From: Candidatus Polarisedimenticolaceae bacterium
Lineage (GTDB): Bacteria; Acidobacteriota; Polarisedimenticolia; Polarisedimenticolales; DASRJG01
Length of the DNA: 64,000 nt
Direction: 5' to 3'
Assembly (NCBI GenBank): GCA_036376135.1
Contig: DASVAW010000119.1
Location: 1,767 to 65,766, forward strand
The position numbers were made by a program, and so were the translations under genes. Of the stretch, positions 3,342 to 52,702 are shown piece after piece. Below the pieces are notes generated by a model, which searched no databases, had not been told where the DNA came from, and saw nothing but the letters and a program-made list of their open reading frames with translations. Position 1 is the first letter of the stretch. The number at the start of each line of letters is the position of its first letter.

Positions 3342-4795
3342 GCCTCGCGCGCATCCTCAACTTCGTCGGCGGGGAATGCCTTCCGCCCGCCTCGAACCGC
3401 TACTTCGAGGTCTTCGACCCGGCGGTCGGCCACCCCTGGGCCCTCGCCCCCGACTCCGACGCGTCCGACGTCGACGCGGCGGTCGATGCCGCGACGCGGG
3501 CGTTCCCCGGGTGGTCGCGCACGACCGCGCAGGAGCGGTCGAAGCTGCTCCTCGCCATCGCCGACCGGATCGAGGCCGACGCGTACCGCCTCGCGATGGA
3601 GGAGTGCATCGACACCGGGAAGCCCCTCGAGGTCGCCCGGACCGTCGACATTCCCCGCGCCGTCGCGAACTTCCGCTTCTTCGCGACGGCGATCCTCCAC
3701 ACCTCGTCGGAGCTCCACGCGACCGACCACGCGGCGCTGAACTACACCCTGCGCCGGCCGCTGGGCCCGGTCGCGTGCATCTCGCCCTGGAACCTGCCGC
3801 TGTACCTGCTGACCTGGAAGGTCGCCCCCGCCCTCGCCGCCGGGAACACGGTCGTCGCGAAACCCTCCGAAGTGACGCCGATGACGGCGTTCCGCCTCGC
3901 GGAGATCGCCCGCGACGCGGGGCTTCCGCCGGGGGTCCTCAACATCGTGCACGGCCTCGGCGCGAAGACCGGTCCCGCGCTCGTCTCCCACTCGGGGATC
4001 CGCGCCGTCTCCTTCACCGGCGGCACCGCGACCGGCGCCGACATCGCGCGCAACGCCTCGCCGCGATTCAAGAAGATCTCCCTCGAGCTCGGCGGGAAGA
4101 ACCCGACGCTCGTCTTCGCGGACGCCGACCTCGGCCGGGCCGTGCGCGGCGCGCTGCGGGCGGCCTTCTCGAACCAGGGTCAGATCTGTCTCTGCGGCTC
4201 GCGCATCCTCGTGGAGCGGCCCGTCTACGCCGAGTTCCTCGAGCGCTTCGCGACCTCCGCGAGGACGCTCCGCGTGGGCGATCCGCTCGAGCCGGGAACG
4301 GAGCAAGGCGCGGTCGTCTCGAAGGCGCACTTCGAGAAGGTCCTCGGGTACATCGACCTCGCACGACGCGAGGGGGGCTCGATCGTGGCCGGCGGCGGCC
4401 CGGCTGGGCCGGTCAACGACCGCTGCCGCGACGGCTGGTTCGTGATGCCGACGGTGGTGATCGACCTCCCGCAGGAATGCCGCACCAACCGCGAGGAGGT
4501 CTTCGGGCCGTTCGTGACCGTCCTGCCCTTCGACGACGAGGACCACGCGATCGCCCTCGCCAACGGCACCGAGTACGGGCTCGCGGCGTCGTTGTGGACC
4601 GAGAACGTCTCTCGCGCCCATCGCGTCGCCGACCGCCTCGACGCCGGGACGGTCTGGGTCAACTGCTGGATGGTGCGCGACCTGCGCGTTCCGTTCGGCG
4701 GCATGAAGTCGAGCGGCGTCGGGCGCGAAGGCGGCGAGGAGGCGCTGCGCTTCTTCACCGAGCCCAAGAACGTCTGCGTGCAGGTGCCCGAATGA
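3338..4795 (+). CDS. NAD-dependent aldehyde dehydrogenase, probably 2-aminomuconate-6-semialdehyde dehydrogenase
   Basis: ALDH motifs 'ELGGKNP' and 'NQGQICLCGSR' (catalytic Cys). Specific role inferred from the convergent kynurenine/ACMSD operon and the downstream RidA-type deaminase. Confidence 0.8.
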   Translation: MSLARILNFVGGECLPPASNRYFEVFDPAVGHPWALAPDSDASDVDAAVDAATRAFPGWSRTTAQERSKLLLAIADRIEADAYRLAMEECIDTGKPLEVARTVDIPRAVANFRFFATAILHTSSELHATDHAALNYTLRRPLGPVACISPWNLPLYLLTWKVAPALAAGNTVVAKPSEVTPMTAFRLAEIARDAGLPPGVLNIVHGLGAKTGPALVSHSGIRAVSFTGGTATGADIARNASPRFKKISLELGGKNPTLVFADADLGRAVRGALRAAFSNQGQICLCGSRILVERPVYAEFLERFATSARTLRVGDPLEPGTEQGAVVSKAHFEKVLGYIDLARREGGSIVAGGGPAGPVNDRCRDGWFVMPTVVIDLPQECRTNREEVFGPFVTVLPFDDEDHAIALANGTEYGLAASLWTENVSRAHRVADRLDAGTVWVNCWMVRDLRVPFGGMKSSGVGREGGEEALRFFTEPKNVCVQVPE

Positions 4796-5172
4796 GCGAC
4801 TACGTCAGCTCGCGCGCCCCCGAGCCGGTCGGCGCCTTCCCCCACGCCAAGCGGGTCGGCGACTTCCTGTTCCTCTCCGGAATCGGCCCGCGGACCCCGG
4901 GGACGAACGCGATCCCGACCACGTTCGAGGAGCAGGCGCTCGCCGTGTTCCGCAACGTGCGCACCGTCCTCGAGGACGCGGGGGCGTCGTGGGAGGACAT
5001 CGTGGACGTGACGGTGTTTCTCACGAACATGAAGCGCGACTTCCCGTCGTTCAATCGCCTGTACGCGGAACATTTCGCGACGAACCGCCCGACGCGCACG
5101 ACGGTGGAAGTCGGGGCGTTGCCGACGCCGATCGACGTCGAGCTGAAGGTCGTCGCGTACCTGAAGAAATAG
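4792..5172 (+). CDS. RidA/YjgF-family protein, probably 2-aminomuconate deaminase
   Basis: 126 aa, RidA-like ('FLFLSGIGP', 'TRTTVEV'). ATGA overlap with the ALDH. TAG stop lies inside the foldback repeat. Confidence 0.75.
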   Translation: MSDYVSSRAPEPVGAFPHAKRVGDFLFLSGIGPRTPGTNAIPTTFEEQALAVFRNVRTVLEDAGASWEDIVDVTVFLTNMKRDFPSFNRLYAEHFATNRPTRTTVEVGALPTPIDVELKVVAYLKK

Positions 5173-5319
5173 GGACAGCAACCTTTAATTGGGGACAGTC
5201 ACCGTATTTCTGCAGGGAACCGACCCGCGCTCTGTCGGTATCGGTCGCCGCACGCCCGCGGGTCGGTTCCCTGCAGAAATACGGTGACTGTCCCCAATTA
5301 AAGGTTGCTGTCCCTATTT
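5167..5319. repeat. 153-bp perfect foldback repeat (63-bp arms, 27-nt loop), TAGGGACAG family, copy A
   Basis: Arms 5167-5229 and 5257-5319 are exact reverse complements (checked base by base). AT-richer than flanks. Each arm has two GGGACAG boxes. The outer AAATAG/CTATTT carries the stops of both convergent genes. Confidence 0.9.
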
Positions 5320-5928
5320 TCTCAGGACGGCGCGCACCGGGCTCGCGTCGAACCCCTCGAGCTTGAGGGGCAGCGCGATCAGATCGTAGTCACCCTCGGG
5401 AACGTCGCGCAGCACGAGCCCCTCCAGGATCGCCATGCCGTGCGCGAGGAACCGGCCGTGCGCCGGCAGGTCCTTCGAGGAGAAGAGGTCCACGCTGGGG
5501 GTGTCGATCCCGACGAGGATGACTCCCCTCGCGTGCAGGACGTCGACGAGCGCCGGGTCGAGGGCCGCGAAGTCCTCGTCGAAACGCTCCGGGTCCGGAT
5601 AGGTGTCGGTGCGCAGCAGGAGGCGCGGCGGAAGCGGCCCTTGGGGGACCGCCGACGCCGGAATCCGAGCCCCTCTCGCGACCGCGACGCGGATCACCCG
5701 GCACGGCCCGACGTAGGCGTCGAGCGAAACCGCGTCGATCGACGCGGCGTCGCGGCCGTAGTGGCTCGGCGCGTCGGCGTGTGCGCCGAGGTGGACGGTG
5801 GCACGCAGCGTCGACAACGTGAGGTTCGCCCCGGCCTTCATGTCGCACAACACCTCGCGGGAGGGCGGCGTGTCGCCGGGCCAGACCGCCAGACGCGGCG
5901 ACACGAGGGGAGAGATGTCGAGGATCAC
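5314..5928 (-). CDS. kynB: kynurenine formamidase (arylformamidase)
   Basis: 204 aa from GTG at 5928 (GTGA overlap with the upstream kinase stop). Metal motif 'HLGAHADAPSH'. 'ILDISPL' N-terminus typical of KynB. Confidence 0.85.
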   Translation of the reverse strand: MILDISPLVSPRLAVWPGDTPPSREVLCDMKAGANLTLSTLRATVHLGAHADAPSHYGRDAASIDAVSLDAYVGPCRVIRVAVARGARIPASAVPQGPLPPRLLLRTDTYPDPERFDEDFAALDPALVDVLHARGVILVGIDTPSVDLFSSKDLPAHGRFLAHGMAILEGLVLRDVPEGDYDLIALPLKLEGFDASPVRAVLRK

Positions 5929-7844
5929 CGGACCTCCGTCTCCCCGGCGTCGAGCACCTCGCGGACCTTCCTGGCCAGCTGCGCGATCGTGAACGGCTTG
6001 GGGAGGAAAGGCGTTCCGCTCGCCTCGCCGCCGTGGCGCGCGATCACCTCCTCCGCGTAGCCGGACATGAAGACCAGGCGGACCTTCGGCGCGACCGCGC
6101 GCACGCGCTCCGCGAGCGCCGGGCCGCTGAGACCGGGCATCACCACGTCGGTCAGGAGGAGCGCGAAGCGATCGGGGCGCCGCGTCAGGATCTCGAGCGC
6201 CTCCTCCGCGGTCGCCGGGGCGTGCACCTCGTATCCGCAGGCGCGCAGCGCGTCCTCGACCACCCGGCGGATCGCCGGCTCGTCCTCGACGACCATCACC
6301 GACTCCGTCCCCAGGGGGATCTCCCCCTCCGAGGTGCGCGGCCGCTCCGCGGAGCGGCGCTCGCGCGAGGTCGGGAGGTGGATCGTGAACGTCGTCCCGG
6401 CACCCGGCCGGCTCTCGACCAGGATGTCTCCCTCGAGCTGCCGCACGAGACCGTAAACCGTGGACAACCCGAGGCCGGTGCCGACGCCGAGCGGCTTGGT
6501 CGTGAAGAACGGCTCGAAGATCTTCCCCAGCACTTCGGGGGGCATTCCGGTCCCGGTGTCGGCGACGGTGAGCCGAACGCATTCCGAGCTCCCCGCTCCG
6601 CCGTCCAGGTCGACGATCTCGGTCTCGATCGAGAGGGTGCCTCCCTCCGGCATCGCGTCGCGGGCGTTCACGGCGAGATTCACGACGACCTGCTCGATCT
6701 GGGTCGGGTCGGCCTTCACGAGGGCCGGACGCGAGGTGAACCGCAGCGCGAGGGTCACGTCCTCGCCGAGCAGGCGCCGCAGCATCGGCGCCAGCTCGTT
6801 CAGCCCCGCGTGCAGGTCGACGACCCGCAGCTCCACGACCTGGCGCCGGGAGAACGCGAGGATCTTCCGCACGAGGGACGCCGCGCGCTCGCTCGCCTTG
6901 CGGATCTCCCCGAGGCGCTGACGCAGCTCGGGGCTGGCTTCCGCCGCCGCGCTCGTCGAGGCGAGCTCGTTGAACCCGAGGATCACGGTGAGCAGGTTGT
7001 TGAAGTCGTGCGCGATCCCGCCGGCGAGCCGCCCCACGGCCTCGAGCCTCTGGGCCTGGAGGAATTGCAGCTCCAGTCGCTTGCGGTCCGTGACGTCGCG
7101 ATCGACGCCGTGGAATCCCGTCAGTTGCCCCGTTTCGGAGAACAGCGGAACGCCGCTGGTCTCGAGGACCACGCGCCCGCCGTCCGAGCGCAGATTCGTG
7201 TTCTCCAGGCGGGCGATCGGCCGCTTCTCGCGCACGCAACGCTCGAACGCGGCGCGCACCGCGTCGCGCTCCTCGGGGACGATCAGATCGAACGGCGAGC
7301 GGCCGAGGATCTCCTCGACCGAATAACCGAGCAGATCGACCACCTTGGGGCTCACGTAGGTGTACCGCCCGTTGCGGTCGACTTCCCAGATCCAGTCGCT
7401 GGTGGCCTCGACGAGGGAGCGGAAGCGACGTTCGCTCCGCCGCAGGGCGTCCTGCTCCTCCTTGCGCCGCGTGATGTCGCGCGCGAATCCTCGCATGCGC
7501 GTCGGGCCGTCGGGCGCTGGAAAGGGCTCCTCGATGAGCTCGAGCACGATGCCGGTCCCGTCCTTGCGGCGCACGAACGCCTCGTACGGCTCGCGGCGCA
7601 CGCCGTCGGCCAGCGCCCCGTCGGTGCTCGCGTGCACCCCGTTCGCGGGGCGCCCCGGATCGAGCAGATCGTCGTAGGGGCGCCCGAGCAGCTCCTCCGG
7701 TTCGAACCCGAGCACCGAGCGGACGGAAGGGGAGAGCCAGGTGAAGCGGTGTTCGGCGTCGTGGATGTAGAAGAAGAGCCCCTCCGCACCCTCCACCATC
7801 AACCGGTAGAAGTCGACTTCCGGTTCGGGACCGCCGCCGCCCAT
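5925..7844 (-). CDS. soluble hybrid sensor histidine kinase (PAS-PAS-HisKA-HATPase-REC)
   Basis: H-box '[14 protein letters not shown]', N/G boxes ('[10 protein letters not shown]', 'DTGTGM', 'GTGLGLS'), receiver '[13 protein letters not shown]'. Two PAS modules and no TM segment. ATG at 7844 shares one base with the kynA stop. Confidence 0.9.
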
Positions 7845-14048: not shown

Positions 14049-14651
14049 ATGCACGTCCTCCACGCGGACGCTCCCTTCCGGAACTCGGTCACGCAGGCCG
14101 TCCGCGAGCTCGAAAAGACAACCGCCGCCGAGGTCGTCGTCGTCCTCGCCGTGCGCTCGGGGTCGTACCGCGACGTCGCGTATGCCACCGGTGCCGCCGT
14201 CGCGTGGGCGACGCTGCTCTTCTTCATCTTCAGTCCGGCCACGTACTCGCCGCTCTGGGTCCCCGTCGAGATGGCAGCGCTCTTCGCCGCCGCGGCGTGG
14301 CTCGTCCATCGAACCCCCGCGCTCGCGCGCCTGCTGACGTCGACGAAGCGCCGCGAGGCCCAGGTCGCCCAGGCGGCCCAGGCGGCGTTCGTCGAGGAAC
14401 GCGTCGATCGCACCCGCGAGCGCACGGGAATCCTCGTCTACGTCTCCCTACTCGAACGGCGCATCGAGATCCTCCCCGACGCGGGGATCGACGGACGCGT
14501 CGCACCCGGAACGTGGAGCCCCGTCGACGTCCGCACGGGCGACGACGTCCTGCGCGAGCTGAAGCGGATCGGCGAGGTCCTCGCGCAGAAGGTCCCGCCG
14601 ACCGGTGCCAACCCCGACGAGCTCCCCGACGCCCCACGGATCCGCGGATGA
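14049..14651 (+). CDS. TPM-domain-like membrane protein
   Basis: 'AEVVVVLAV...YRD' and 'GILVYVSLLERRIEILPDAGI' resemble the two halves of a TPM domain, split by two hydrophobic helices. ATGA overlap with the next gene. Confidence 0.55.
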   Translation: MHVLHADAPFRNSVTQAVRELEKTTAAEVVVVLAVRSGSYRDVAYATGAAVAWATLLFFIFSPATYSPLWVPVEMAALFAAAAWLVHRTPALARLLTSTKRREAQVAQAAQAAFVEERVDRTRERTGILVYVSLLERRIEILPDAGIDGRVAPGTWSPVDVRTGDDVLRELKRIGEVLAQKVPPTGANPDELPDAPRIRG

Positions 14652-16120
14652 GACGGCGCTGGCCGCTCCTGCTCCTCGCGATTCTCGCGGCGAGCGAAGC
14701 GCTCGCTCGTCTGGGCGGCGGCGAGGGGTACTCGGGCGGCGGATCCTCGGGCGGAGGAGGGGGCGGTGGCGACGACGGCTTCGCGGTCTACGCGATCGTG
14801 CGTCTGCTGCTCTGGCTCGTCTTCCGGCACCCGCTGATCGGGATCCCCCTCGTGATCCTCGCGATCGTCGTCTTCGTGAAGATGAAGGCGGCGGGGAACT
14901 TCCAGGTCGCCTACGAGCCGGTCGTCCTGCGCACGGCCCCGCCGTCGCGCCCCGCCCCGGCGCAGCTGGACACGCTCCGTCAGGCCGACAGGAACTTCTC
15001 CGAGCCGGTCTTCCTCGACTTCGCGCAGCTCGTGTATGTCCGTGCGCAGGGAGCGCGACCGGGGAGCCGTGCCGAGATCGCCCAGCCGTGGATCGCCGAG
15101 GAGGCGCTGCCGATCCTCTTCGCGCGCCCCGAGGGGCTCGAGCAGGTCCGGGACGTCATCTTCGGGAAGACGGCGCCGTCCGGCTATCGGAGAGAGGAGG
15201 GGTTCGACCTCCTCGACGTGGACTTCGAGACGAATCTCACCGAGGTCCGCCAGGGACACGAACGCCAGCTCCTGCTCAAGGACCGCTGGACGTTCCGCCG
15301 GAAAGCGGGCGCGCTCTCCCCCGTCCCCGAACGGATGCGCGCTCTCGGCTGCGCCGGGTGCGGCTCGACCCTCGAGCCCAAGCCCGACGGCTCGTGCCCT
15401 AGCTGCGGCGCACCGCGCACGCGAGGCCTCCTGCAGTGGGAGGTCGCCAAGATCCTCCCCCTGGATCGACGGACGGTCGAGCCCCCGTCGCTCATGCTCG
15501 GGGGCGGCGTCGAGCCGGGGACGAACCTCCCGACGCGCTTCGACCCACGCCTGGGCGCGATGCGTCGCGACTTCGAGTCGCGCCATCCCGAGTTCTCGTG
15601 GGAGGTCTTCGACGCGCGCGCCCGCGAGACGTTCCTTCGGCTGCAGGACGCGTGGTCGAAGGGAAGCTGGGAGCTCGCCCGGCCGTACGAAACCGACGCG
15701 TTGTTCCAGTCGCACCGATTCTGGGTCGAGCGGTACAAGCGGTTCGGCCTCGTGAATCACCTCGAGGGGACGACGATCTCGCGCGTGGACGTCGCAAAGG
15801 TCGGCTTCGACGCCTTCTACGAGTCGATCACGGTGCGGATCTTCGCGACGATGCGCGACTGGACCGAGGACGCGTCGGGGAAGGTCGTCGGCGGGAGCAA
15901 GACGCTGCCGCGCACGTTTTCCGAGTACTGGACGTTCCTGCGCGCGGTCGGCGCGACCCGCAAGGTGCCGGGCGGTGCCGAGAGCTGCCCCTCGTGCGGC
16001 GCGCCGCTCGACAGGATCAACATGGCCGGCGTCTGCGAGTACTGCGGCTCGAAGCTCACGACCGGGGAGTTCGACTGGGTCGTGTCGCGGATCGAGCAGG
16101 ACGACGCGTACGGGGGTTAA
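14648..16120 (+). CDS. Tim44-like domain protein with Gly-rich N-terminus and two zinc ribbons
   Basis: Signal/TM, 'GGGSSGGGGGGGDDG' tract, 'CAGCGS..CPSCGA' and 'CPSCGA..CEYCGS' ribbons. 'FLRLQDAWSKGSW...' resembles a Tim44-like domain. Confidence 0.65.
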   Translation: MRRRWPLLLLAILAASEALARLGGGEGYSGGGSSGGGGGGGDDGFAVYAIVRLLLWLVFRHPLIGIPLVILAIVVFVKMKAAGNFQVAYEPVVLRTAPPSRPAPAQLDTLRQADRNFSEPVFLDFAQLVYVRAQGARPGSRAEIAQPWIAEEALPILFARPEGLEQVRDVIFGKTAPSGYRREEGFDLLDVDFETNLTEVRQGHERQLLLKDRWTFRRKAGALSPVPERMRALGCAGCGSTLEPKPDGSCPSCGAPRTRGLLQWEVAKILPLDRRTVEPPSLMLGGGVEPGTNLPTRFDPRLGAMRRDFESRHPEFSWEVFDARARETFLRLQDAWSKGSWELARPYETDALFQSHRFWVERYKRFGLVNHLEGTTISRVDVAKVGFDAFYESITVRIFATMRDWTEDASGKVVGGSKTLPRTFSEYWTFLRAVGATRKVPGGAESCPSCGAPLDRINMAGVCEYCGSKLTTGEFDWVVSRIEQDDAYGG

Positions 16121-16121
16121 T

Positions 16122-16137
16122 TAGGGACAGGCACCAA
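16122..16137. repeat. TAGGGACAG-family half-site C (TAGGGACAGGCACCAA)
   Basis: Starts 2 nt after the TAA of the Tim44-like gene. Its exact 16-nt reverse complement lies at 52264-52279. Confidence 0.6.
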
Positions 16138-16150
16138 CTCCTTCGCCGGC

Positions 16151-16735
16151 TCAGCGTCCGTCGGCCTGCGCGAGCGCCCGTTCCAGCAGCTCCGACAGGT
16201 CCATGCGTTCCGCTGCGGCGACGAGGTACGGCCGATCGATGTGCTCACCGGTGACCCTCAGGACCGACAACACGTCCCCCCATTGGCGGTCCGACGATTC
16301 GTTCCCGAGCCGATACCAACGCAGTTTCTGGAGGACGATGTCCTCAGGCTGATAGACGAACAGAAAGCGATCGGGATCGACCGCGACGCGAACCTTCCGT
16401 CGCCGCCGCATCTGCTCTTGGTCCACGGCGTGATCGCGGAGCACGAACAGGTCGACCTTCATCCCGGACTCGAGGTGGATCAGGTTCGCGCTCGATCGTT
16501 CGCGGACCGCGCGAACCAGAGCTTCGCGGTCGACATAGAAGCCTTCCCCTAGCAGCCACACCAGCGCTTCGATCTTCCCCTCGTCGAGCCGGACGACCAT
16601 GTCGACGTCCATCGTCGATCGCGGGACCCCGCTCAGCGAGGCAGCGACCGATCCGCCGACGAGGTACTCGACCCCCGCTCCTTCCAGGATCGCGCTGATG
16701 CGCAAGGCGACCTCGATCGGATCGGGGCTCATCAC
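16151..16735 (-). CDS. nucleotidyltransferase-fold protein (MNT-like)
   Basis: 'GGSVAASLSG' (G-S motif) plus 'DVDMVV' (DxD) typical of minimal nucleotidyltransferases. Overlaps the stop of the upstream 91-aa ORF. Slightly lower GC. Confidence 0.6.
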   Translation of the reverse strand: MMSPDPIEVALRISAILEGAGVEYLVGGSVAASLSGVPRSTMDVDMVVRLDEGKIEALVWLLGEGFYVDREALVRAVRERSSANLIHLESGMKVDLFVLRDHAVDQEQMRRRRKVRVAVDPDRFLFVYQPEDIVLQKLRWYRLGNESSDRQWGDVLSVLRVTGEHIDRPYLVAAAERMDLSELLERALAQADGR

Positions 16736-17007
16736 GGCGCGTCGAGGTGCGATCCGACCTCGGGGTAAGCGCGGCGGGCGAGGTCACCTCCGAGCCGCAG
16801 CACGGCCAGCCGCAGGAACACCTCGCGGTCCGAAGCGTTCGGGAATCGATGGCGAATTCCGGCGGCGGCGAACGTGTCGACCATTTGGCAGATCCCGGTC
16901 AACAACTCGGCCCGTTCCTCCGTCGACTTCCGGCGGATCAACTCGATCTGGATCCGCGCCGCCTCCGGCGAAGTGTCGAGATCGAGCCCGTGCCGGATGT
17001 CCTTCAT
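16732..17007 (-). CDS. small helical protein, partner of the nucleotidyltransferase
   Basis: 91 aa with balanced composition. Stop overlaps the downstream start, giving a two-gene module. No family recognised. Confidence 0.5.
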   Translation of the reverse strand: MKDIRHGLDLDTSPEAARIQIELIRRKSTEERAELLTGICQMVDTFAAAGIRHRFPNASDREVFLRLAVLRLGGDLARRAYPEVGSHLDAP

Positions 17008-21045: not shown

Positions 21046-22122
21046 ATGTGGACGCCACGCGCCATAATCGCCAGCGTGGAAACACGGGTTCTGCCGCCGA
21101 CGCCCGAGACGATCGCGCAAGCCGCAGCCGCACTGCGGCATGGGGATCTCGTCGGGATCCCGACCGAGACCGTCTACGGCCTCGCGGGGAACGCCCTCGA
21201 CGCGCACGCCCTCGCGTCGATCTTCGCCGCGAAGGAGCGCCCTTCGTTCGACCCGCTCATCGTCCACATCGGCGGCGCGATCGACGCGACGGGGCTCGTG
21301 GACCTCTCGGCGTTCGGCGCGTGCGCCCGCGACCGCCTTCGCGCGCTCGTCGACGCGTTCTGGCCGGGGCCGCTGACCCTGGTCCTGCCGAAGACCCCGA
21401 TGGTCCCCGACCTCGCCACGAGCGGCCTGGCGACGATCGCCCTTCGGGCGCCTTCGCATCCGGTGGCGCGCGCCCTGATCGCCGCGGCCGGCGTTCCGCT
21501 CGCCGCGCCGAGCGCGAACCGATTCGGCCGGATCAGCCCGACGACCGCCTCCGACGTCGTCCAGGAGTTGTGGGGACGGGTCTCGATGGTGATCGACGGG
21601 GGGCCCTGCGCCGTCGGCGTCGAGTCCACCGTCGTCGCGATCGATCCGGAGGGAGGGCTTCGGCTGCTGCGGCCGGGCGGGATCTCTCGGGAGTCGCTCA
21701 TCGCGGTCACCGGCGCACCCGTCGCCGTCGTGCCGCGCGTGGTGGGCCCGGGCGCCCCCGCGCGCTCCCCGGGGATGCTCGAAAGCCACTATGCGCCCGT
21801 GAAACCCCTGCACCTGCTCCCGCGCGCGATCCTCGCGTTGAACGACGTGGAACGTCGCGAGCTGCTCCCCGCCGGCGCCGGAATCCTCGCCGCGTCGGGG
21901 GATGCCGAGGCGATCGCCGCCGCCTGCGCCGGGCCGCCCACGATTCTCCGCGTGCTCAGTCCCTCCGGCGACGCGGAGGAGGCGGCACGGAACCTCTTTG
22001 CGGCGTTGCGCGCCCTCGACGCTTCCGAGGCGACGACCCTCGTCACCGAGCCGTGGCCCGGCGAGGAGGGGCTCGGCTACGCGATCGCCGACCGCCTGCG
22101 CCGCGCCACCGCCGTCAAATAG
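21046..22122 (+). CDS. tsaC: L-threonylcarbamoyladenylate synthase (Sua5/YrdC long form)
   Basis: 'GDLVGIPTETVYGLAGNA' and 'PSANRFG' YrdC motifs, plus a Sua5-type C-terminal domain. Start may be GTG at 21076. 'AAATAG' stop lies in foldback B. Confidence 0.85.
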   Translation: MWTPRAIIASVETRVLPPTPETIAQAAAALRHGDLVGIPTETVYGLAGNALDAHALASIFAAKERPSFDPLIVHIGGAIDATGLVDLSAFGACARDRLRALVDAFWPGPLTLVLPKTPMVPDLATSGLATIALRAPSHPVARALIAAAGVPLAAPSANRFGRISPTTASDVVQELWGRVSMVIDGGPCAVGVESTVVAIDPEGGLRLLRPGGISRESLIAVTGAPVAVVPRVVGPGAPARSPGMLESHYAPVKPLHLLPRAILALNDVERRELLPAGAGILAASGDAEAIAAACAGPPTILRVLSPSGDAEEAARNLFAALRALDASEATTLVTEPWPGEEGLGYAIADRLRRATAVK

Positions 22123-22242
22123 GGACAGCAACCTATTCGCTAAATAGGGACAGTCCCTCTTTTCCAGCTCCGCGACGTGTGTCTTCGGAGCTGGAAAAGA
22201 GGGACTGTCCCTATTTAGCGAATAGGTTGCTGTCCCTATTTG
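22116..22242. repeat. 127-bp perfect foldback repeat (57-bp arms, 13-nt loop), TAGGGACAG family, copy B
   Basis: 22117-22172 and 22186-22241 are exact reverse complements, plus one more flanking pair. Shares AAATAGGGACAGCAACCT with copy A. Contains a second box, TAGGGACAGTCCCT. Carries the stops of both convergent genes. Confidence 0.9.
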
Positions 22243-23897
22243 TTGAGGACGTCCATGCCCTGGCGGAAGACGACGTCGGTGGGGACGTCCGAGGCGTTCA
22301 CGGCGTCGAGCGTGGCCTTGAGCGAGCCGGTCGGCTGCGCGCCCTTCGGGAGGAACGCGAGCGATCCTTCGTAGTCGCCGTCCCCCTGCAGCCTGAGGAT
22401 CTTCTCGGCGAGGCGGTCGACCGCCGCGCCCATCTTCTCGAAGTCGACGCGGTAGGCCCCGTCGGCGCCGCGCGTGAACGCCCCTTCCTTCTCGAGGAAC
22501 TCGAATTGCGCGAGGTTCGCGCGCCCGTGCGCGCTCGACGCGCCGAAACGGACGGAGCGGAACAACCCCGCGACGAAGGTGACGTAGTTGTCCGCGAGCT
22601 CCCCGCCCTGCAGCTCGCCCATCTCGCGCAACTTCTTGACCATGTAGAGGCCGAGGACGTCCGCTTTCCCCTCCTCGAGGGCGCCGTACTGTTCCTTGAG
22701 CACCTCGCGGACGAACCCCGAGCCCCCCACCGTCTGTTTGATTCCGAGGCCGTGCGCGACCTCGTGGAACATCACGTTCGAGAAGAACGCGTCGAAGGTG
22801 ACGTGCTTGCGCTGGTCGGCGACGATCACCCGCTCGGAGATCGGGACGAGGATCTTCTCGAACTTCGCCTGCATGGCGTTCTTGAGCTGCAGCCGGCGCG
22901 TCCCCTTCTTGAGCTGGACTTCCTCGTCGTTCGGGAGGTTGATGGCGATCGTCTTCGACCCGGCGTTGCAGTCCCCCGCGTAGAAGACCGCATCGTAGGC
23001 GTTCAGGTCGGACTCGGTGCCGGGCGTCTCCTTCTTGTAGTCGTCGGGGACGGGAAGGCCGCGCTGCAGGGCGGGGAGCAGCTGCGCATAACGCTCGAGC
23101 TTGCGACTCCACGCCCGGTCCTTGACGAGGACGTACCCCTCGTGCGCCGCGCGGATCCCGTAAAGCTGATCCTCGTACGTCTCGATCGGCCCGATCACGA
23201 CGTCGACGACGTTGTTCTTCATCTCCATCCACGCGAAGTCGGACGGACGGTAGTCGTCGGTGAGCAGGGCCCTGGCCCGCAGCTCGAGGTACCGCTTCAG
23301 GCCGGGATCGTCGGCGAGCTTGGCGGCCTCGAGCAGGAGCGACGAGGCGCGGGCGACCTGCGGCGCGTACGCCTCGCGGTAAGGCACGGTGACGAGCTTT
23401 CCGGCGGGATCCCGGCGCACGACGGTGTACAGGCTCTTGAGCGCGGCTCCGCCGTCGGGGGCCGCCTTCACCGCCTCCTGGAACTGGGCGTCGGTCATGT
23501 CCGTCGGATAGAACCCCGCACCCGCGGGTTTCGCGCCCACGCCCTCGAGGAACGGCTTGTTGGCGTCGAGGCGGTCCCACGGGCCGTAGTTGATCTCGAC
23601 GTACCGACGGAGTTCCGGGTCGGAGATCGACGCGAGCAGCGGCTGCCGGTCGCCGTACGCCTGCAGCCAGAAGATCGCGTCCATCTCCCGGCAGGCTTCG
23701 ATCAGCAGCGGGAGCATCCGCCGCTCGTTGTCGGTCAACGCGCCGAGGTCGGTCGTCAGCGTGACCTCGGCGTAGGAAGCACGTCGGGGCGTCACCTTCT
23801 CTCCTCCAGCGGGAGCCGCGGGCTCGGGTTCCGGCGCCCCCGCGCATCCCGCGAGGACCAGCATCAACGTCAAGGACACGATCGTACGCATCGTCAC
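22236..23897 (-). CDS. DPP III (M49)-like zinc metallopeptidase lipoprotein
   Basis: 'LMLVLAGCAG' lipobox. 'HEVAHGLG' plus downstream 'EEGKAD' zinc motifs. The ATG at 23891 (GAGG 5 nt upstream) may be the true start. Confidence 0.7.
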   Translation of the reverse strand: MTMRTIVSLTLMLVLAGCAGAPEPEPAAPAGGEKVTPRRASYAEVTLTTDLGALTDNERRMLPLLIEACREMDAIFWLQAYGDRQPLLASISDPELRRYVEINYGPWDRLDANKPFLEGVGAKPAGAGFYPTDMTDAQFQEAVKAAPDGGAALKSLYTVVRRDPAGKLVTVPYREAYAPQVARASSLLLEAAKLADDPGLKRYLELRARALLTDDYRPSDFAWMEMKNNVVDVVIGPIETYEDQLYGIRAAHEGYVLVKDRAWSRKLERYAQLLPALQRGLPVPDDYKKETPGTESDLNAYDAVFYAGDCNAGSKTIAINLPNDEEVQLKKGTRRLQLKNAMQAKFEKILVPISERVIVADQRKHVTFDAFFSNVMFHEVAHGLGIKQTVGGSGFVREVLKEQYGALEEGKADVLGLYMVKKLREMGELQGGELADNYVTFVAGLFRSVRFGASSAHGRANLAQFEFLEKEGAFTRGADGAYRVDFEKMGAAVDRLAEKILRLQGDGDYEGSLAFLPKGAQPTGSLKATLDAVNASDVPTDVVFRQGMDVLNK

Positions 23898-48501: not shown

Positions 48502-49472
48502 CCGAGCCGAACGACTCCATCACCCACGCCGTGGAGGTCGCCCGCCGCCTTCGCGAGTCCGTCTCCCGCGCCGTCGTCGGCCAGGCGACGCTCCTCGACG
48601 AGGTGCTCGCGGGGTTCCTCGCCTCGGGGCACGTCCTGCTCGAAGGGGTCCCCGGTCTCGGCAAGACCCTGACGGTGCTCGCCCTGGCGAAGGCGTTCGG
48701 CGGGAAGTTCTCGCGCATCCAGTTCACCCCCGACCTGATGCCCGCGGACGTCGTCGGCCACGCGATCTACGAGCCCCAGACCGGGCAGTTCCGCACGCGC
48801 CAGGGCCCGGCGTTCACGAACCTCCTCCTCGCCGACGAGATCAACCGCGCCCCCGCGAAGACGCAGTCGGCGCTCCTCGAGGTGATGCAGGAGCGGCAGA
48901 TCACGATCGAGGGGCAGTCGTTCCCCCTCGCCCCGCCCTTCATGACGCTCGCGACGCAGAACCCGATCGAGCTCGAGGGGACCTACCCGCTCCCCGAGGC
49001 GCAGCTCGACCGGTTCCTGCTCAAGGTCCGCATCCAGCACCCGGGCGAGGCCGAGGAGATCGCCATCGTCGAGGCGGCGACGCGCGGCCACGTGGGAGAC
49101 CGCCTCGACGTCTCCACGGTCGAGACCGTCGCCGACGCCGCCCAGGTCGTCGAGGCGCAGCGTGTCGCCGCGCGACTGCTCGTGGACGCGCGCGTCCTCG
49201 GGTACGCGACCCGCCTCGCCCGCGCCACGCGCACCTGGCCGGGGGTCGCGATGGGCGCCGGCCCGCGGGGCTCGATCTCCCTCGTGCGCGCCGCCCGCGC
49301 CGTGGCCCTCCTCGATGGGCGCGACTTCGTCACCCCCGACGACGTGAAGGCGATCGCGCTCCCGGCGCTTCGCCACCGGATCACCCTCGCTCCCGACCTC
49401 GAGATCGAGGGGCGCCACCCCGACGACGTCCTGCGCGCCGTCCTCGAGTCGGTCGAGGCCCCGCGCGCGTGA
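48498..49472 (+). CDS. MoxR-family AAA+ ATPase
   Basis: 'EGVPGLGKT' Walker A, 'LLADEINRAPAKTQSALLEVMQE' Walker B/sensor, 'GAGPRGS' motif. GTGA overlaps at both ends. Confidence 0.9.
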   Translation: MTEPNDSITHAVEVARRLRESVSRAVVGQATLLDEVLAGFLASGHVLLEGVPGLGKTLTVLALAKAFGGKFSRIQFTPDLMPADVVGHAIYEPQTGQFRTRQGPAFTNLLLADEINRAPAKTQSALLEVMQERQITIEGQSFPLAPPFMTLATQNPIELEGTYPLPEAQLDRFLLKVRIQHPGEAEEIAIVEAATRGHVGDRLDVSTVETVADAAQVVEAQRVAARLLVDARVLGYATRLARATRTWPGVAMGAGPRGSISLVRAARAVALLDGRDFVTPDDVKAIALPALRHRITLAPDLEIEGRHPDDVLRAVLESVEAPRA

Positions 49473-50773
49473 CCCCGTCGCGCCGCCTCGCGTGGGTCCT
49501 CGCGGCGTGGGCCGCGGCCGGGTTCCTCCTTCCGGTCGGTCCCTTCGTGCTCCCGGTGTGGGCGTACGCGGGCCTCGCGATCTTCGGCCTTCTGGGGATC
49601 GATGCGATCCTCGGCTCCCGACGGCGGACGCCGACGCTCACGCGGAAGGTGCAGGACGCGTTGCCGCTCGGCGATCCGTCGGAGGTCGTGCTCCACCTCG
49701 CGCACGAGGGGAGTCGCCCGCTCGCCGTCGAGGTGTTCGATCACCCGCCCGAAGCGTTGAGCACGGACGGGCTTCCCCTGCACGTGACGGTCCGTCCCGA
49801 AACGCCGGCCGAAGTCCGCTACCGCGTCACCCCGACCGCGCGCGGCTCGATGCGCTTCGACCGGGCATGGGTTCGATTCCCGTCGCCTCTGGGGCTGTGG
49901 GAGTGCCGCCGTCGCGCGGGCGCGGAGCACACGATCCGGGTCTTCCCGAACTTCCGGAAGGCGGCGCGCTGGTCGCTCTACGCGGTCGACAACCACGCGA
50001 GCCGGCTGGGAGTGCGCCTGCGCCCGCGTCGCGGCGAGGGAACCGAGCTGCGTGAGCTCCGGGAATACCGCGAAGGCGACGCGATCCGGCAGATCGACTG
50101 GAAGGCGACCTCACGGCTGCGCCGGCCCATCTCGCGGGAGTACCAGGCGGAGCGCGACCAGCAGGTGGTGTTCCTCCTCGACTGCGGCCGGACGATGCGT
50201 GCCGTCGACGACGGCGCGGCGCACTTCGATCATGCGCTCAACGCGGTCCTCCTGCTCGGTTACGTCGCCCTGAGGCAGGGGGACGCCGTGGGCCTTCTCG
50301 CGTTCGGCTCGACCCCGCGCTGGCTCGAGCCGGTGCGCGGCCCCGGCGGGATGAAGACGCTCCTGGAGGCGGTCTACGACCTCGAGACGGCGCCGCAGGC
50401 GTCGGACTACGCCGTGGCGGTCGCCGACCTGCTCGCACGGCAGCGCCGGCGCGCGCTCGTCGTCGTGATCTCCAACCTCGGCGACGGGGAGGGGTTCGAG
50501 GTCGCGGCGCCCCTGCAGACCCTGCGACGCAAGCACCTCGTCGTGCTGGGCTCGCTGCGCGAGGCGGCGCTCGATCGCGCGCTCGCGGCGCCGGTGGCGG
50601 GGTTCGACGCGGCGCTGCGGATCGCCTCGACCCACCGTTTCCTCGAGGCCCGCGAGCGCGCGCACCGCGGCTTCCAGTCGCGCGGCATCCACGTGCTCGA
50701 TTGCCCGCCGTCGGAGCTGCCGCCGGCGCTGGTCAATCGCTACCTCGACATCAAGCGGGCTGGGACGCTGTAA
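49469..50773 (+). CDS. DUF58 (vWA-like) protein
   Basis: Two N-terminal TM helices. 'LREYREGDAIRQIDWKATSR' DUF58 signature. 'VVFLLDCGRTM' vWA-like start. Confidence 0.85.
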   Translation: MTPSRRLAWVLAAWAAAGFLLPVGPFVLPVWAYAGLAIFGLLGIDAILGSRRRTPTLTRKVQDALPLGDPSEVVLHLAHEGSRPLAVEVFDHPPEALSTDGLPLHVTVRPETPAEVRYRVTPTARGSMRFDRAWVRFPSPLGLWECRRRAGAEHTIRVFPNFRKAARWSLYAVDNHASRLGVRLRPRRGEGTELRELREYREGDAIRQIDWKATSRLRRPISREYQAERDQQVVFLLDCGRTMRAVDDGAAHFDHALNAVLLLGYVALRQGDAVGLLAFGSTPRWLEPVRGPGGMKTLLEAVYDLETAPQASDYAVAVADLLARQRRRALVVVISNLGDGEGFEVAAPLQTLRRKHLVVLGSLREAALDRALAAPVAGFDAALRIASTHRFLEARERAHRGFQSRGIHVLDCPPSELPPALVNRYLDIKRAGTL

Positions 50774-50793
50774 ATAGGGACAGGAACCTATTT
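50772..50793. repeat. TAGGGACAG-family half-site D (AAATAGGGACAGGAACCTATTT, itself a 7-bp-stem mini-palindrome)
   Basis: Contains the TAA of the DUF58 gene (+) and the TAG of the orphan ORF (-). 20/21 identity with 22117-22137. Confidence 0.7.
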
Positions 50794-52218
50794 CCGACCT
50801 CCGGTCGGCCATCGGCAGACCTCGCGGTCATAGGAGACGACGTCCGAAGCCAAGTCTCCTTCGCCGAGACAGATCTCCTTCGTGGCGGAACCCCAACGCT
50901 CGCGGCTGGTCGGGAGCAGCGGGGTGTAGTCCCGTTCCAGCTCGCCATCGCATCCCGGGCTCACCAGAACGACGCCGAGACCATCTGAGAAATAGAGAAC
51001 GGAGCGCCCCCACCCATCGAGGATGGGACCGACAGCGTCCTTCGATGCAGGATCGACGGCCGTGGCGATCCGCTCGAACGGAACCAATCGTCCCCCGCTG
51101 TCGGGATAACGATCGCCTCGGCGCAGTTTCTCGGAGGCCGTGACAACCGCCCGGCGGATCGCCGCGTACGTTCGTTCGACATCCGCATCATCGAACGAGG
51201 CGCAGCCGTCCACCGCTGCGCCGGCGCAGAGCGCAGGGTTCGTTTCGACCTCCGCGAGGCGACGGTCAACGCATTCCGAAGGACTGCCACTCTGCGCGAA
51301 GCCGTACACGTCGATGTCGACGTCGCAACCGAGGGTGGAGCAGATCCGATCGCAGTAGTCGCGCGGAAGCTCGACCGACCGCTCTTCGCCCGCGACCCAC
51401 TCGTCGGCTCCAGGCCACGGAAGCGACAGGAACACCTCCCCGGAGCGGTCGCCGGCGCGACGAAGGTCGATCGCCTCGGTTTCATCGGAACGTCGCAGAC
51501 TCGTTCCCGACCCGTTGACCAGGACCAGCCGTCTCGTCGCGTCGATTCGCGCGCGAATGCCCTCCTCGGTATTGCACGATTCCACGACGACGGGTTCGCG
51601 ACCGGGATCGGCCACTAGGAAGCGACGGAGCGACTCCGACTCGCCGACGGTGATGCGGAAGGCTGCGCCGTTGCGCTCGTTGCCTTGCTTGTCGACCAGA
51701 GTGGGGCGCACGGAATAGGTGCCGGGCGCTACCTTCGAGGCGTCCCACGCCCCTTCTTTCCCTGAGTCGAAGACGACCGCGATCCCCTCGGTGCCCTCGG
51801 AGCCGGTCAGCGCCAGCGATCGGATGCGCAGCGGGCAGGGAACTTGCGGACAACCGTCCGACGCCGTCCACGTGCGACCTGGCGACGCGTGGACGACCGT
51901 GGCGAAGCATCCGATCAGCAGGCCTGTGAGAGCAGCCCCCAACGTGTTCTGAACGTTCCCGTTGCGGGCAGCGCGCCGACCGAGACGATGCAGCACCGCC
52001 GCCACGACCATCGCCACGCCGGTCGCGAGCAGAACCCAGCCGGTGAAGCGCGGCCCCCGGATCGCCAGCGTGAGCGCGGCGGCAACGATCATCGTGACGC
52101 CCAACGCATCGGCGAGCCGCTTTCCCCGATCTCCCCGGCGTCGAATCCAGATGAGGACGTACCCGACACCGATACCGACCGCCGCGGGGTAGAGGGTCTC
52201 TACGAGATCCATGGGCAC
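50788..52218 (-). CDS. orphan membrane protein with Cys-rich extracytoplasmic region (lower GC)
   Basis: N-terminal 3-4 TM helices, then a balanced Cys-containing sequence. No family recognised. ATG at 52212 is an alternative start. Bracketed by inverted half-sites D and E. Confidence 0.55.
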   Translation of the reverse strand: MPMDLVETLYPAAVGIGVGYVLIWIRRRGDRGKRLADALGVTMIVAAALTLAIRGPRFTGWVLLATGVAMVVAAVLHRLGRRAARNGNVQNTLGAALTGLLIGCFATVVHASPGRTWTASDGCPQVPCPLRIRSLALTGSEGTEGIAVVFDSGKEGAWDASKVAPGTYSVRPTLVDKQGNERNGAAFRITVGESESLRRFLVADPGREPVVVESCNTEEGIRARIDATRRLVLVNGSGTSLRRSDETEAIDLRRAGDRSGEVFLSLPWPGADEWVAGEERSVELPRDYCDRICSTLGCDVDIDVYGFAQSGSPSECVDRRLAEVETNPALCAGAAVDGCASFDDADVERTYAAIRRAVVTASEKLRRGDRYPDSGGRLVPFERIATAVDPASKDAVGPILDGWGRSVLYFSDGLGVVLVSPGCDGELERDYTPLLPTSRERWGSATKEICLGEGDLASDVVSYDREVCRWPTGGRK

Positions 52219-52263
52219 CGCCCTCCCGTCCGATTGCCCGGGAGTGTAGCGCCGAGTCGTTAA

Positions 52264-52284
52264 TTGGTGCCTGTCCCTATTTTT
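52264..52284. repeat. TAGGGACAG-family half-site E (reverse complement AAAAATAGGGACAGGCACCAA)
   Basis: Carries the Lys + TAG end of the 52277..52702 gene. Inverted relative to D (16/17 over AAATAGGGACAGGnACC) and a 16-nt exact inverted match to half-site C. Confidence 0.7.
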
Positions 52285-52702
52285 CGATGCGGACGCCGCG
52301 GCGCTGCATCGCCTCGGACAAGACGGCGGCGATCTTCCTGGGGTTGCCGAGCAGGCGCGGCACCTCGATCACGACCCCCTCGGAGATGGAAAGCGTCAAC
52401 CCCGGCCGCAGGGCGATCGCGATCTGCGTGAGATCGTCGAGGCGCACGGCGATCACCCGGCCGAGGAGGTCGCACGACGCCACGTGCGTCTCCGTCAACA
52501 CGAGCCGCCGCCGCCACGCCTCGAAGAGCGCCCAGATGCAAAGGAGCGGCGCGCCGTAGCCGTAGATCTTGAGGACCCCCGGCCACGTCGCCGCGAACGC
52601 CCCCCAGATCGTGATCGCCCCGAGCACGGACAGCCCGATGCGAAGCCACCACGGGTAACGCCAGATCCTCACGGGAGTGCCGAGATCTTCCGGGATTCGC
52701 AT
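52277..52702 (-). CDS. small membrane protein, possibly bacterial PH (YdbS/DUF304-like)
   Basis: 141 aa, two TM helices then a ~70-aa beta-rich domain. Start shares one base with the upstream permease stop. Confidence 0.5.
   Translation of the reverse strand: MRIPEDLGTPVRIWRYPWWLRIGLSVLGAITIWGAFAATWPGVLKIYGYGAPLLCIWALFEAWRRRLVLTETHVASCDLLGRVIAVRLDDLTQIAIALRPGLTLSISEGVVIEVPRLLGNPRKIAAVLSEAMQRRGVRIEK

Follow-up and report, generated by a model that had tools for sequence, protein, structure and literature searches.

A perfect palindrome ends two convergent genes

We analysed a 64-kb stretch of DNA (hereafter the window, meaning the whole stretch) from a metagenome-assembled genome of a Candidatus Polarisedimenticolaceae bacterium (Acidobacteriota), in which two convergent genes, ridA and kynB, run into a perfect palindrome of 153 bp that we call element A. 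Here we describe this element, the repeat units of which it is built, their copies in the window and in other genomes, and the transposase genes that such units bracket elsewhere. The features at the junction are the following (positions are those of the window).

4792..5172, plus strand: ridA, RidA family (PF01042, E = 2.5e-29; profile position 120 of 121 reached at residue 123 of 126)
5167..5319, no strand: element A, perfect palindrome and REPIN-like dimer with two units per arm (63/63 arm match; RNA fold z = -19)
5167..5229, plus strand: left arm of element A, consisting of outer unit AAATAGGGACAGCAACCTTTAATT, inner unit AATTGGGGACAGTCACCGTATTTC and then CTGCAGGGAACCGACCCGCG (nhmmer 5163-5186, E = 2e-5, and 5192-5215, weak)
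5230..5256, no strand: spacer of element A, 27 nt, 70% GC, orientation flipped in a sister strain
5257..5319, minus strand: right arm of element A, exact reverse complement of the left arm (nhmmer 5326-5300 and 5294-5271)
5314..5928, minus strand: kynB, cyclase / arylformamidase family (PF04199; product 100% identical to a protein of an NCBI Candidatus Polarisedimenticolaceae genome)

The two arms are reverse complements at 63 of 63 positions and enclose the spacer CTCTGTCGGTATCGGTCGCCGCACGCC. Our recomputation thus agrees with a preliminary description of this DNA, made from the sequence alone, which had reported flawless 63-nt arms around a GC-rich loop of 27 nt. The perfect palindrome is limited exactly to 5167-5319 and reaches 5160-5326 if two mismatches are allowed. 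Its arms are AT-richer than their surroundings, as had also been reported, with 52% GC against 70% in the flanks and 70.8% in the entire window. Folded as RNA, the element has a minimum free energy (MFE) of -154.5 kcal/mol, compared to -61 ± 5 kcal/mol for shuffled sequences. Arms of 63 nt with a 27-nt spacer are tolerable for bacteria, the known instability being that of larger palindromes that have no spacer. We found two GGGACAG-type boxes in each arm, in keeping with the preliminary description, but at a spacing of 20 nt (5172 and 5192) rather than about 24 nt. The outer boxes read AGGGACAG and the inner boxes, at 5191-5198 and 5288-5295, read GGGGACAG. A search against Rfam 15 gave no gathering-score match in the window, and a permissive scan of 5100-5400 returned only chance miRNA-type hairpins.

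The element reaches into both genes. The 3′ end of ridA reads CTG AAG AAA TAG and that of kynB, on the minus strand, CTG AGA AAA TAG, and both products consequently end in L-(K/R)-K-stop, with the stops and the final Lys codons falling within the outermost six bases of the palindrome. The earlier claim that the outermost AAATAG / CTATTT encodes the last Lys and the TAG of the RidA-like gene and of kynB is therefore seen directly in both open reading frame (ORF) ends. The convergent operons had both been taken for kynurenine operons; this is clearly so for the minus-strand cluster, which comprises a kynurenine 3-monooxygenase-like gene, tryptophan 2,3-dioxygenase, a PAS histidine kinase and kynB, but not clearly so for the plus-strand cluster of methyltransferase, short-chain dehydrogenase/reductase, aldehyde dehydrogenase and RidA genes. 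The histidine kinase gene (5925-7844, minus strand), which lies between the tryptophan 2,3-dioxygenase gene and kynB, encodes a hybrid PAS kinase with a receiver domain.

Further copies in the window lie at gene ends

Element A is not alone in the window. The core TAGGGACAGSMACC, with up to two mismatches, has 10 matches there compared to 0.69 expected, a count reached by none of 100 shuffles. Furthermore, an nhmmer profile built from copies in other genomes found 11 units at five loci of the window and nothing else: element A and a second element (element B) hold four each, and solo units lie at 16122 (plus strand), 50775 (plus strand) and 52279 (minus strand).

22116..22242, no strand: element B, a second perfect palindrome with 57-nt arms, a 13-nt loop and two units per arm (AAATAGGGACAGCAACCTATT, AAATAGGGACAGTCCCTC)
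21046..22122, plus strand: Sua5/TsaC gene, ending GTC AAA TAG inside element B (PF01300 and PF03481; Sua5_C position 136 of 136 at residue 356 of 358)
22236..23897, minus strand: M49-family peptidase gene, ending AAC AAA TAG inside element B (PF03571)
16118..16139, plus strand: solo unit TAATTAGGGACAGGCACCAAC, immediately following the TAA of a Tim44-like gene (14648-16120) (nhmmer E = 0.003)
50769..50798, plus strand: solo unit GTAAATAGGGACAGGAACCTATTTCC, its A-tract overlapped by the TAA of a DUF58/VWA gene (49469-50773) (E = 6e-8)
52253..52287, minus strand: solo unit GAAAAATAGGGACAGGCACCAATTAAC, whose TAG is the stop of the minus-strand ORF 52277-52702 (E = 3e-8)

The terminus AAATAGGGACAG is common to element B and the three solo units, and the motif count recovered every recurrence that had been listed before (22117, with variants at 16122, 50772 and, as reverse complement, 52284). 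The locus at 22116-22242, previously given as a copy of the terminus only, is a full second perfect palindrome, with its boxes 25 nt apart in each arm. Every solo unit is oriented like its upstream gene and overlaps or abuts the stop of that gene. Across the window, all seven gene ends adjacent to units stop inside a unit or no more than 1 nt from it, and five of these seven use AAA-TAG.

Next to the solo units lie genes at 16151-17007 and 50788-52218, both on the minus strand, whose GC and third-codon-position GC (GC3) are below those of the rest of the window. They encode a pair of 194-aa and 91-aa proteins and a 476-aa membrane protein, respectively; none of the three has a Pfam family at the curated threshold, and they could be accessory DNA inserted next to the units. 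The solo units at 50775 and 52279, inverted to each other, enclose the gene for the membrane protein. We rejected a cargo-carrying composite made of these two units, which are of different subtypes and are each the 3′ unit of their own upstream gene.

The unit is a hairpin found in many phyla

About 25-30 nt long, the basic unit forms a hairpin consisting of a 5′ A-rich strand (G)GAAAAATAGG, an 8-nt loop GACAGSMA and a 3′ T-rich strand CCTATTTTC(C), with the stem AAAATAGG / CCTATTTT closing the loop. The outer, variable parts of the two strands covary: the MFE is -8.4 kcal/mol for native units and -7.25 kcal/mol for chimeras of 5′ and 3′ halves (p = 0.003). Units are found singly or as inverted pairs, and the arms of elements A and B carry two each.

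A scan with the 16-mer AATAGGGACAGSMACC over one genome per species (596 Gb) found at least 120 loci. The family is multi-copy and extends to other genomes. By our own arithmetic about 1000 chance matches are expected for a 16-mer with two two-fold positions in 596 Gb, and single matches therefore prove nothing. The extended context (G)GAAAAATAGGGACAG[G/C]CACC[T/A][T/A]TTT[T/C]C is what sets the units apart, as it is present in 57 of the 142 matches listed, compared to about 3% expected from base composition. None of 39 matches in viral contigs, used as a negative control (IMG/VR pattern scan), has this context. Inverted pairs of units, 43-85 nt apart, occur at at least 17 loci among the matches listed. 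All 57 pattern-selected units carry the 5′ tag ATAG; at 16122 in the window it is TTAG. Units were found in Planctomycetota, Verrucomicrobiota, Nitrospirota, Acidobacteriota, Omnitrophota (39% GC), Actinomycetota (Collinsella, Anoxymicrobiaceae), Alphaproteobacteria, delta-proteobacterial lineages, Armatimonadota, Elusimicrobiota, Hydrogenedentota and Rhodothermota, nearly unchanged over at least 10 phyla.

The position at gene ends is general as well. A same-strand ORF of at least 100 codons ends within -40 to +13 of the unit in 32 of 54 cases, compared to 5.3 ± 2.2 at random positions, and the unit's own TAG is used as the stop by 13 of the 54, mostly in GC-rich genomes. An all-against-all clustering of the ORFs near 60 units revealed no recurrent gene family, which indicates that the units are not the operator or terminator of one gene family. 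BLAST of the consensus unit against plasmid and phage collections gave chance partial matches only, and a full-text literature search with the motif strings returned only primers and guide RNAs.

Several signals of other kinds were considered and rejected. A sigma-54 promoter (GGCAC-N5-TT) is broken by the CCACC and CAACC variants and is unsuited to a 3′-end position; an integron attC site would have RYYYAAC/GTTRRRY cores, which are absent, and in each arm the boxes have a direct, not an inverted, orientation; a recoding signal of the SECIS/PYLIS type is at odds with the varying stop frame; and a likeness to segments of rRNA or RNase P was judged coincidental.

Some arrangements of units stand out in other genomes. 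In a planctomycete contig (L095, 488-2715), dimers follow successive genes about 1.1-1.5 kb apart and superficially resemble a cassette array, and dimers likewise recur after consecutive genes on scaffold_4 of Collinsella tanakaei (L035 7148-7201; L066 523-576 and 2002-2043). The genes between them are ordinary and unrelated-looking in both cases, not cassettes. In a Candidatus Kapaibacterium contig (L117, 5107-5722), the 16-mer recurs with a 150-nt period in an apparent coding tandem repeat, which probably has nothing to do with the element family.

The same units bracket Y1 transposase genes

RAYT-like tyrosine transposases with long flanking inverted repeats and no GTAG REPs have been described as TIRYTs, residing in TIRtrons; GGGGWSAS is a motif common to many TIRtron repeats, which are arranged in families of singles, dimers and groups, and TIRYTs were judged ‘less productive’ than RAYTs (Di Nocera, De Gregorio & Rocco 2013, PMC3733652). 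Most TIRYTs fall in TnpA-REP subclass 2.1, whose long proteins carry a C-terminal helix-turn-helix (HTH) / DnaA_C-like domain (Quentin et al. 2018, PMC6006769). We found that the inner boxes of element A fit GGGGWSAS exactly. The preliminary description had recognised the motif from no described repeat family; through the inner box it fits this published one (Di Nocera et al. 2013, PMC3733652).

We used the published TIRYT sequences (Additional file 5) as tblastn queries against the window, the unit loci and 80 control loci selected by kynB. Four unit loci (L010, L024, L026 and L056) hold genes whose identity is 42-47% with Koribacter aba2776 and 37-44% with Geobacter gsu2396, and a fifth locus (L017) holds a more distant TIRYT-like gene. 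The three proteins run against Pfam (L056, L010 and L017) are all PF01797, Y1_Tnp. The clustering of ORFs near units had missed the transposase because few loci carry it. At all five loci the Y1 gene lies between inverted units, which are found about 40 nt before the ATG and immediately behind the stop:

L056: GATAATAGGGACAGCCACCTATTTT, Y1 gene, AATTGGTGACTGTCCCTAAT
L010: ATAAATAGGGACAGCCACCTATTTC, Y1 gene, GAAATAGGTGACTGTCCCCATTT
L026: two tandem ATAATGGGGACAGTCACCTATTATT units upstream of the Y1 gene, one inverted unit downstream
L024: Y1 gene with a complete dimer on either side
L017: Y1 gene with one upstream unit and two inverted downstream units

The reference gene aba2776 itself, in the Koribacter genome (L210), is bracketed by GGAAAATCGGGGACAGACGAAATAAT repeats, and its inverted repeats, beginning GGAAAATCGGGGACAG, match the GGGGWSAS motif (Di Nocera et al. 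2013). With units flanking Y1_Tnp genes in five genomes as well as aba2776, the option of a REP/BIME-like miniature element mobilised by a Y1 (RAYT, IS200/IS605-like) transposase, one of several offered in the preliminary description, is the one that gained support.

Most contigs with aba2776-like Y1 genes are only 1-3 kb long, as expected if assemblies break at multi-copy repeats flanking the gene. Upstream of aba2776 in Koribacter versatilis (L210, about 840-905), the full unit is preceded by several incomplete copies of its 5′ half (GAAAATCGGG(G)) in tandem, and a similar ‘stutter’ of AAAATAG(G)-type partial copies is seen in L003, L018, L022, L023, L072, L090 and L106. These could be footprints or extra binding sites.

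The kynB-ridA junction in relatives

The occupation of the junction follows the relatedness of kynB. None of 80 metagenomic relatives at 65-74% kynB identity has a GGGACAG box after the stop. In about a dozen of them ridA converges directly on kynB, several with overlapping 3′ ends; at one such junction (L143), which reads GTGCTCAGAGCGTCGCGATGA, kynB ends VLRASR* and ridA, on the other strand, ends IATL*. Relatives at 76-80% identity also lack the element, and their synteny differs, with no convergent ridA. At 85-98% identity an element is present in all relatives; it begins at one and the same stop codon and with one and the same terminal unit, but the interiors are unrelated. In L206 it consists of one GGGACAGTCACCG unit and a GGGGTCAG box, with perfect 41-nt arms and a 29-nt loop; in L203 it continues with GGGACAGCCACCGTATTAATTCGAGACGCAAGACGG; and in L204 and L205 it reads AGATAGGGACAGTCACCGTATC.

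No target duplication is visible at the junction in the flanks of L206 or of the window. The flanks beyond the unit are inverted-symmetric and not direct repeats, with CCTGAGAAAATAG on both sides in L206 and CCTGAAGAAATAG and CCTGAGAAAATAG in the window. The junction element thus appears, from these sequence comparisons, to be lineage-specific and long resident, with an interior that turns over and termini of transposase type that are retained.

The kynB stop region bears unrelated palindromic repeats in other soil relatives (L199, L151, L156, L161, L126, L187 and L188), and in L199 a GTAG-type dimer (GTAGGGTGGGTCGAGCG...CGCTCGACCACCCTAC) provides the TAG. Convergent gene 3′ ends look like a general sink for palindromic repeats.

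Both arms carry the same changes in a sister strain

A sister strain from a forest-soil metagenome has a ridA 100% and a kynB 98% identical to those of the window. Its arm on the ridA side (L001) and its arm on the kynB side (left half of L202) share the same 6-nt deletion relative to the window (GCAACCTTTAATT to GCT[A/C]ATT), together with a G>C and a C>T substitution; a single base differs between them. The three changes, being present on both arms, are therefore not independent and point to concerted evolution of the arms or to replacement of the whole palindrome. Template switching in quasipalindromes and recombination between inverted arms, the latter also flipping the spacer, are established routes to matching arms. 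The 27-nt spacer (window 5230-5256, compared to L001 3425-3451 and L202) is inverted relative to the flanking genes in both sister-strain contigs. Either it has truly flipped between the inverted arms, or its orientation is beyond the resolution of short k-mers. The flawless arms had earlier been read as a sign of recent origin or active maintenance. Given the symmetric changes, perfect arms need no very recent origin, and that reading is not required.

Both sister-strain contigs are affected by the palindrome. The L001 contig ends inside it, and L202 (1-1407; ENA GD_forest_Scaff12615072) is a fold-back chimera that runs through kynB, the variant arm, the spacer, a window-type arm and kynB in reverse complement. 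Assemblers mis-join at the palindrome, apparently mixing two strains in L202.

Interpretation and alternatives

Taken together, we interpret element A as a non-autonomous, REPIN-like palindromic repeat of the TIRYT-flanking family, TIRYTs being RAYT-like Y1/HUH transposases of the IS200 type, subclass 2.1, and we put the probability of this reading at roughly 0.8. Since the same units bracket Y1 genes elsewhere, the elements of the window would be gene-less members of that family, related to TIRYT genes as REPs and REPINs are to RAYT genes. IS608 TnpA and the TnpA-REP of E. coli act on hairpins in single-stranded DNA. By analogy, a single-copy TIRYT elsewhere in the genome would bind the unit hairpin in single-stranded DNA and copy or move the element, and copies would survive only where they do little harm, namely at gene ends. 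An AAA-TAG terminus reaching into a gene end would replace the last codon or two and give Lys-stop, on both sides if the genes converge. The arms would stay identical by concerted evolution, through template switching or arm-to-arm conversion, either of which might also flip the spacer. Both convergent mRNAs would then end in a very stable hairpin, which may protect their 3′ ends or insulate the two transcription units.

A number of observations weigh against this assignment. The tblastn search detected no TIRYT gene in the 64-kb window, nor in the 80 control loci, and mobilisation in the host genome is therefore something that we infer. At three further loci (L213-L215), no GGGGWSAS box can be recognised in the 160 nt to each side of an aba2776-like Y1 gene (62% identical), which may be a decayed or domesticated copy. 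The outer boxes of element A match GGGGWSAS at seven of eight positions only, the 5′ tag is ATAG instead of the GTAG of REPs, and no REP-like structures were found beside subclass 2.1 genes (Quentin et al. 2018, PMC6006769). At the junction, all relatives at 85% kynB identity or more already carry the element, which also fits long residence with selection for function. The kynB relatives compared show no transposition event, no excision footprint and no empty site at nucleotide resolution, the latter because the relatives at 76-80% identity have a different synteny and no convergent ridA; of the empty sites that the preliminary description had proposed to look for in relatives, what was found is absence of the element at or below 80% identity. 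Finally, the perfect identity of the arms may partly be an assembly effect, as de Bruijn assemblers can merge near-identical arms into a falsely perfect palindrome.

The observation that every relative at or above 85% identity has the same kynB stop occupied would also be accounted for by a host-selected bidirectional terminator or mRNA-stabilising hairpin that is kept in place and not now mobile, its link to a transposase being historical. Consistent with this, units sit at gene 3′ ends in sense orientation, the RNA hairpin is extremely stable and flanked by an A-run and a T-run, and REPs in general are regarded as working at the RNA level (Di Nocera et al. 2013, PMC3733652). However, the T-run is base-paired within the stem instead of following it, and for this reason a consensus terminator scan calls neither palindrome. 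Moreover, a terminator has no need of a 14-nt core that is invariant over 10 phyla, the same units bracket Y1 transposase genes, and close relatives have kept only the termini of transposase type at the kynB site, with a complete turnover of the interiors. We therefore regard selection as a terminator alone as unlikely, while a terminator role for element A is possible. The near-invariance of the core in many phyla, together with the two boxes per arm at a helical-repeat-like spacing of 20-25 nt, could instead speak for an array of sites at which a host protein (nucleoid, partition or regulatory) binds DNA or RNA, conserved without mobility; the C-terminal HTH / DnaA_C-like domain of TIRYTs could itself bind duplex DNA. 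Such an array is difficult to reconcile with the lack of a recurrent neighbour gene or regulon and with copy numbers and internal sequences that differ greatly between genomes, and the Y1 transposase is the only protein found physically associated with the units, so that we consider it quite improbable.

An origin as a miniature inverted-repeat transposable element (MITE) of a TA-duplicating DDE transposon (IS630/Tc1-like), or as a Correia-like element, had been suggested from the reading TA|GGGACAG, which most window copies indeed have at the terminus, and the size and the terminal inverted repeats are MITE-like. The dinucleotide before the box nevertheless varies among genuine copies, from TA to TT in the inner box of the window (AATTGGGGACAG), TG in L026 (ATAATGGGGACAG) and TC in Koribacter (L210, AAAATCGGGGACAG); the flanks are inverted-symmetric without direct repeats; full-length elements with these termini encode PF01797 and not a DDE enzyme; and no DDE gene recurs near 60 units. 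This origin is accordingly extremely doubtful. Equally slight is the chance that the perfect palindrome is an assembly artefact as such. Inverted repeats longer than k are collapsed by assemblers, and of the related contigs one is a fold-back chimera (L202) and another stops within the palindrome (L001). Yet independent assemblies (L206 from JGI; L001 and L202 from ENA) have the same type of element at this junction, linked to both flanking genes, the window holds a second palindrome and three solo units besides, and perfect dimers exist in the isolate genome of Collinsella tanakaei.

Under the TIRYT-flanking interpretation, the long perfect palindrome that ends two genes is a repeat of the REP/REPIN type that goes with Y1 (RAYT/TIRYT) transposases, and the capture of stop codons is a known habit of such repeats, REP termini often providing TAG stop codons (Di Nocera et al. 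2013, PMC3733652). We found TIRYT repeats mentioned in just two papers, and four aspects appear modestly new: the TIRYT-flanking repeats are themselves small hairpins with a conserved loop, in a subclass said to be without REP-like structures; they share one extended, nearly invariant core over many phyla; they are abundant in some uncultured lineages, where they break assemblies (TIRYT contigs of 1-3 kb, fold-back chimeras); and the element turns over symmetrically at one site. For annotation, the unit marks true gene 3′ ends and hot spots of mis-assembly; for the study of mobile elements, it offers a well-defined substrate for recognition by subclass 2.1 enzymes.

We also hypothesize, tentatively and in the awareness that this probably goes too far, that the invariant core TAGGGACAGSMACC marks a single ancient, horizontally spread replicator family tied to subclass 2.1 RAYT/TIRYT enzymes in at least 10 mostly uncultured phyla, with one sequence everywhere, unlike species-specific REPs, and with palindromes that actively symmetrise and grow outward, overwriting the last codons of convergent genes and leaving L-(K/R)-K-stop at both ends. 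If so, the element would be a portable ‘stop codon plus 3′-hairpin’ module by which gene ends are reshaped, and enzymes of subclass 2.1 would recognise hairpins after all.

Comparison with known systems

Correction of quasipalindromes by template switching, reportedly described by Ripley in 1982 and by the Lovett laboratory, resembles the behaviour of the arms in that it transfers a change from one arm of an inverted repeat to its partner, which matches the symmetric 6-nt deletion and the two substitutions of the sister strain. It differs in being a general mechanism of replication error and not an element family, and its action here would be deduced from two strains. Correia elements (NEMIS of Neisseria) and TA-duplicating MITEs are likewise palindromes of about 100-150 bp in high copy number that lie beside genes and can affect transcripts, but the elements described here have no TA duplication, no DDE partner and no interior of the integration host factor (IHF) type, and their termini are tied to a Y1 transposase family.

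The resemblance to the REP/REPIN-RAYT systems of E. coli, Pseudomonas and Stenotrophomonas (SMAG) goes further. Both have short hairpin units and head-to-head inverted dimers that fold into long structures, both are extragenic at the 3′ ends of unidirectional or convergent genes with a terminus that can provide the TAG, and in both a single-copy Y1/HUH transposase gene is flanked by the repeats. Unlike in REPs, the TAG of the ATAG tag lies within the stem and there is no unpaired GTAG; the conserved part is the loop with its closing pairs rather than the stem; the sequence is common to several phyla instead of being species-specific; and the transposase is of another RAYT subclass, with a C-terminal HTH-like extension.

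Finally, the TIRtron/TIRYT repeats share with the present elements the box GGGGACAG and an A-run before it, as in Koribacter aba2776 (GGAAAATCGGGGACAG), a Y1_Tnp gene bracketed at a fixed short distance (in other genomes), and dispersal as singles, dimers and groups, represented in the window by three solo units and two dimers with doubled arms. They differ in that most units here read AGGGACAG within the longer invariant core TAGGGACAGSMACC, and in that each repeat is a hairpin, where Quentin et al. (2018) found no REP-like structure for the subclass. In addition, the repeats are abundant here, with 11 units at five loci in 64 kb, and form perfect two-unit arms of 57-63 nt.

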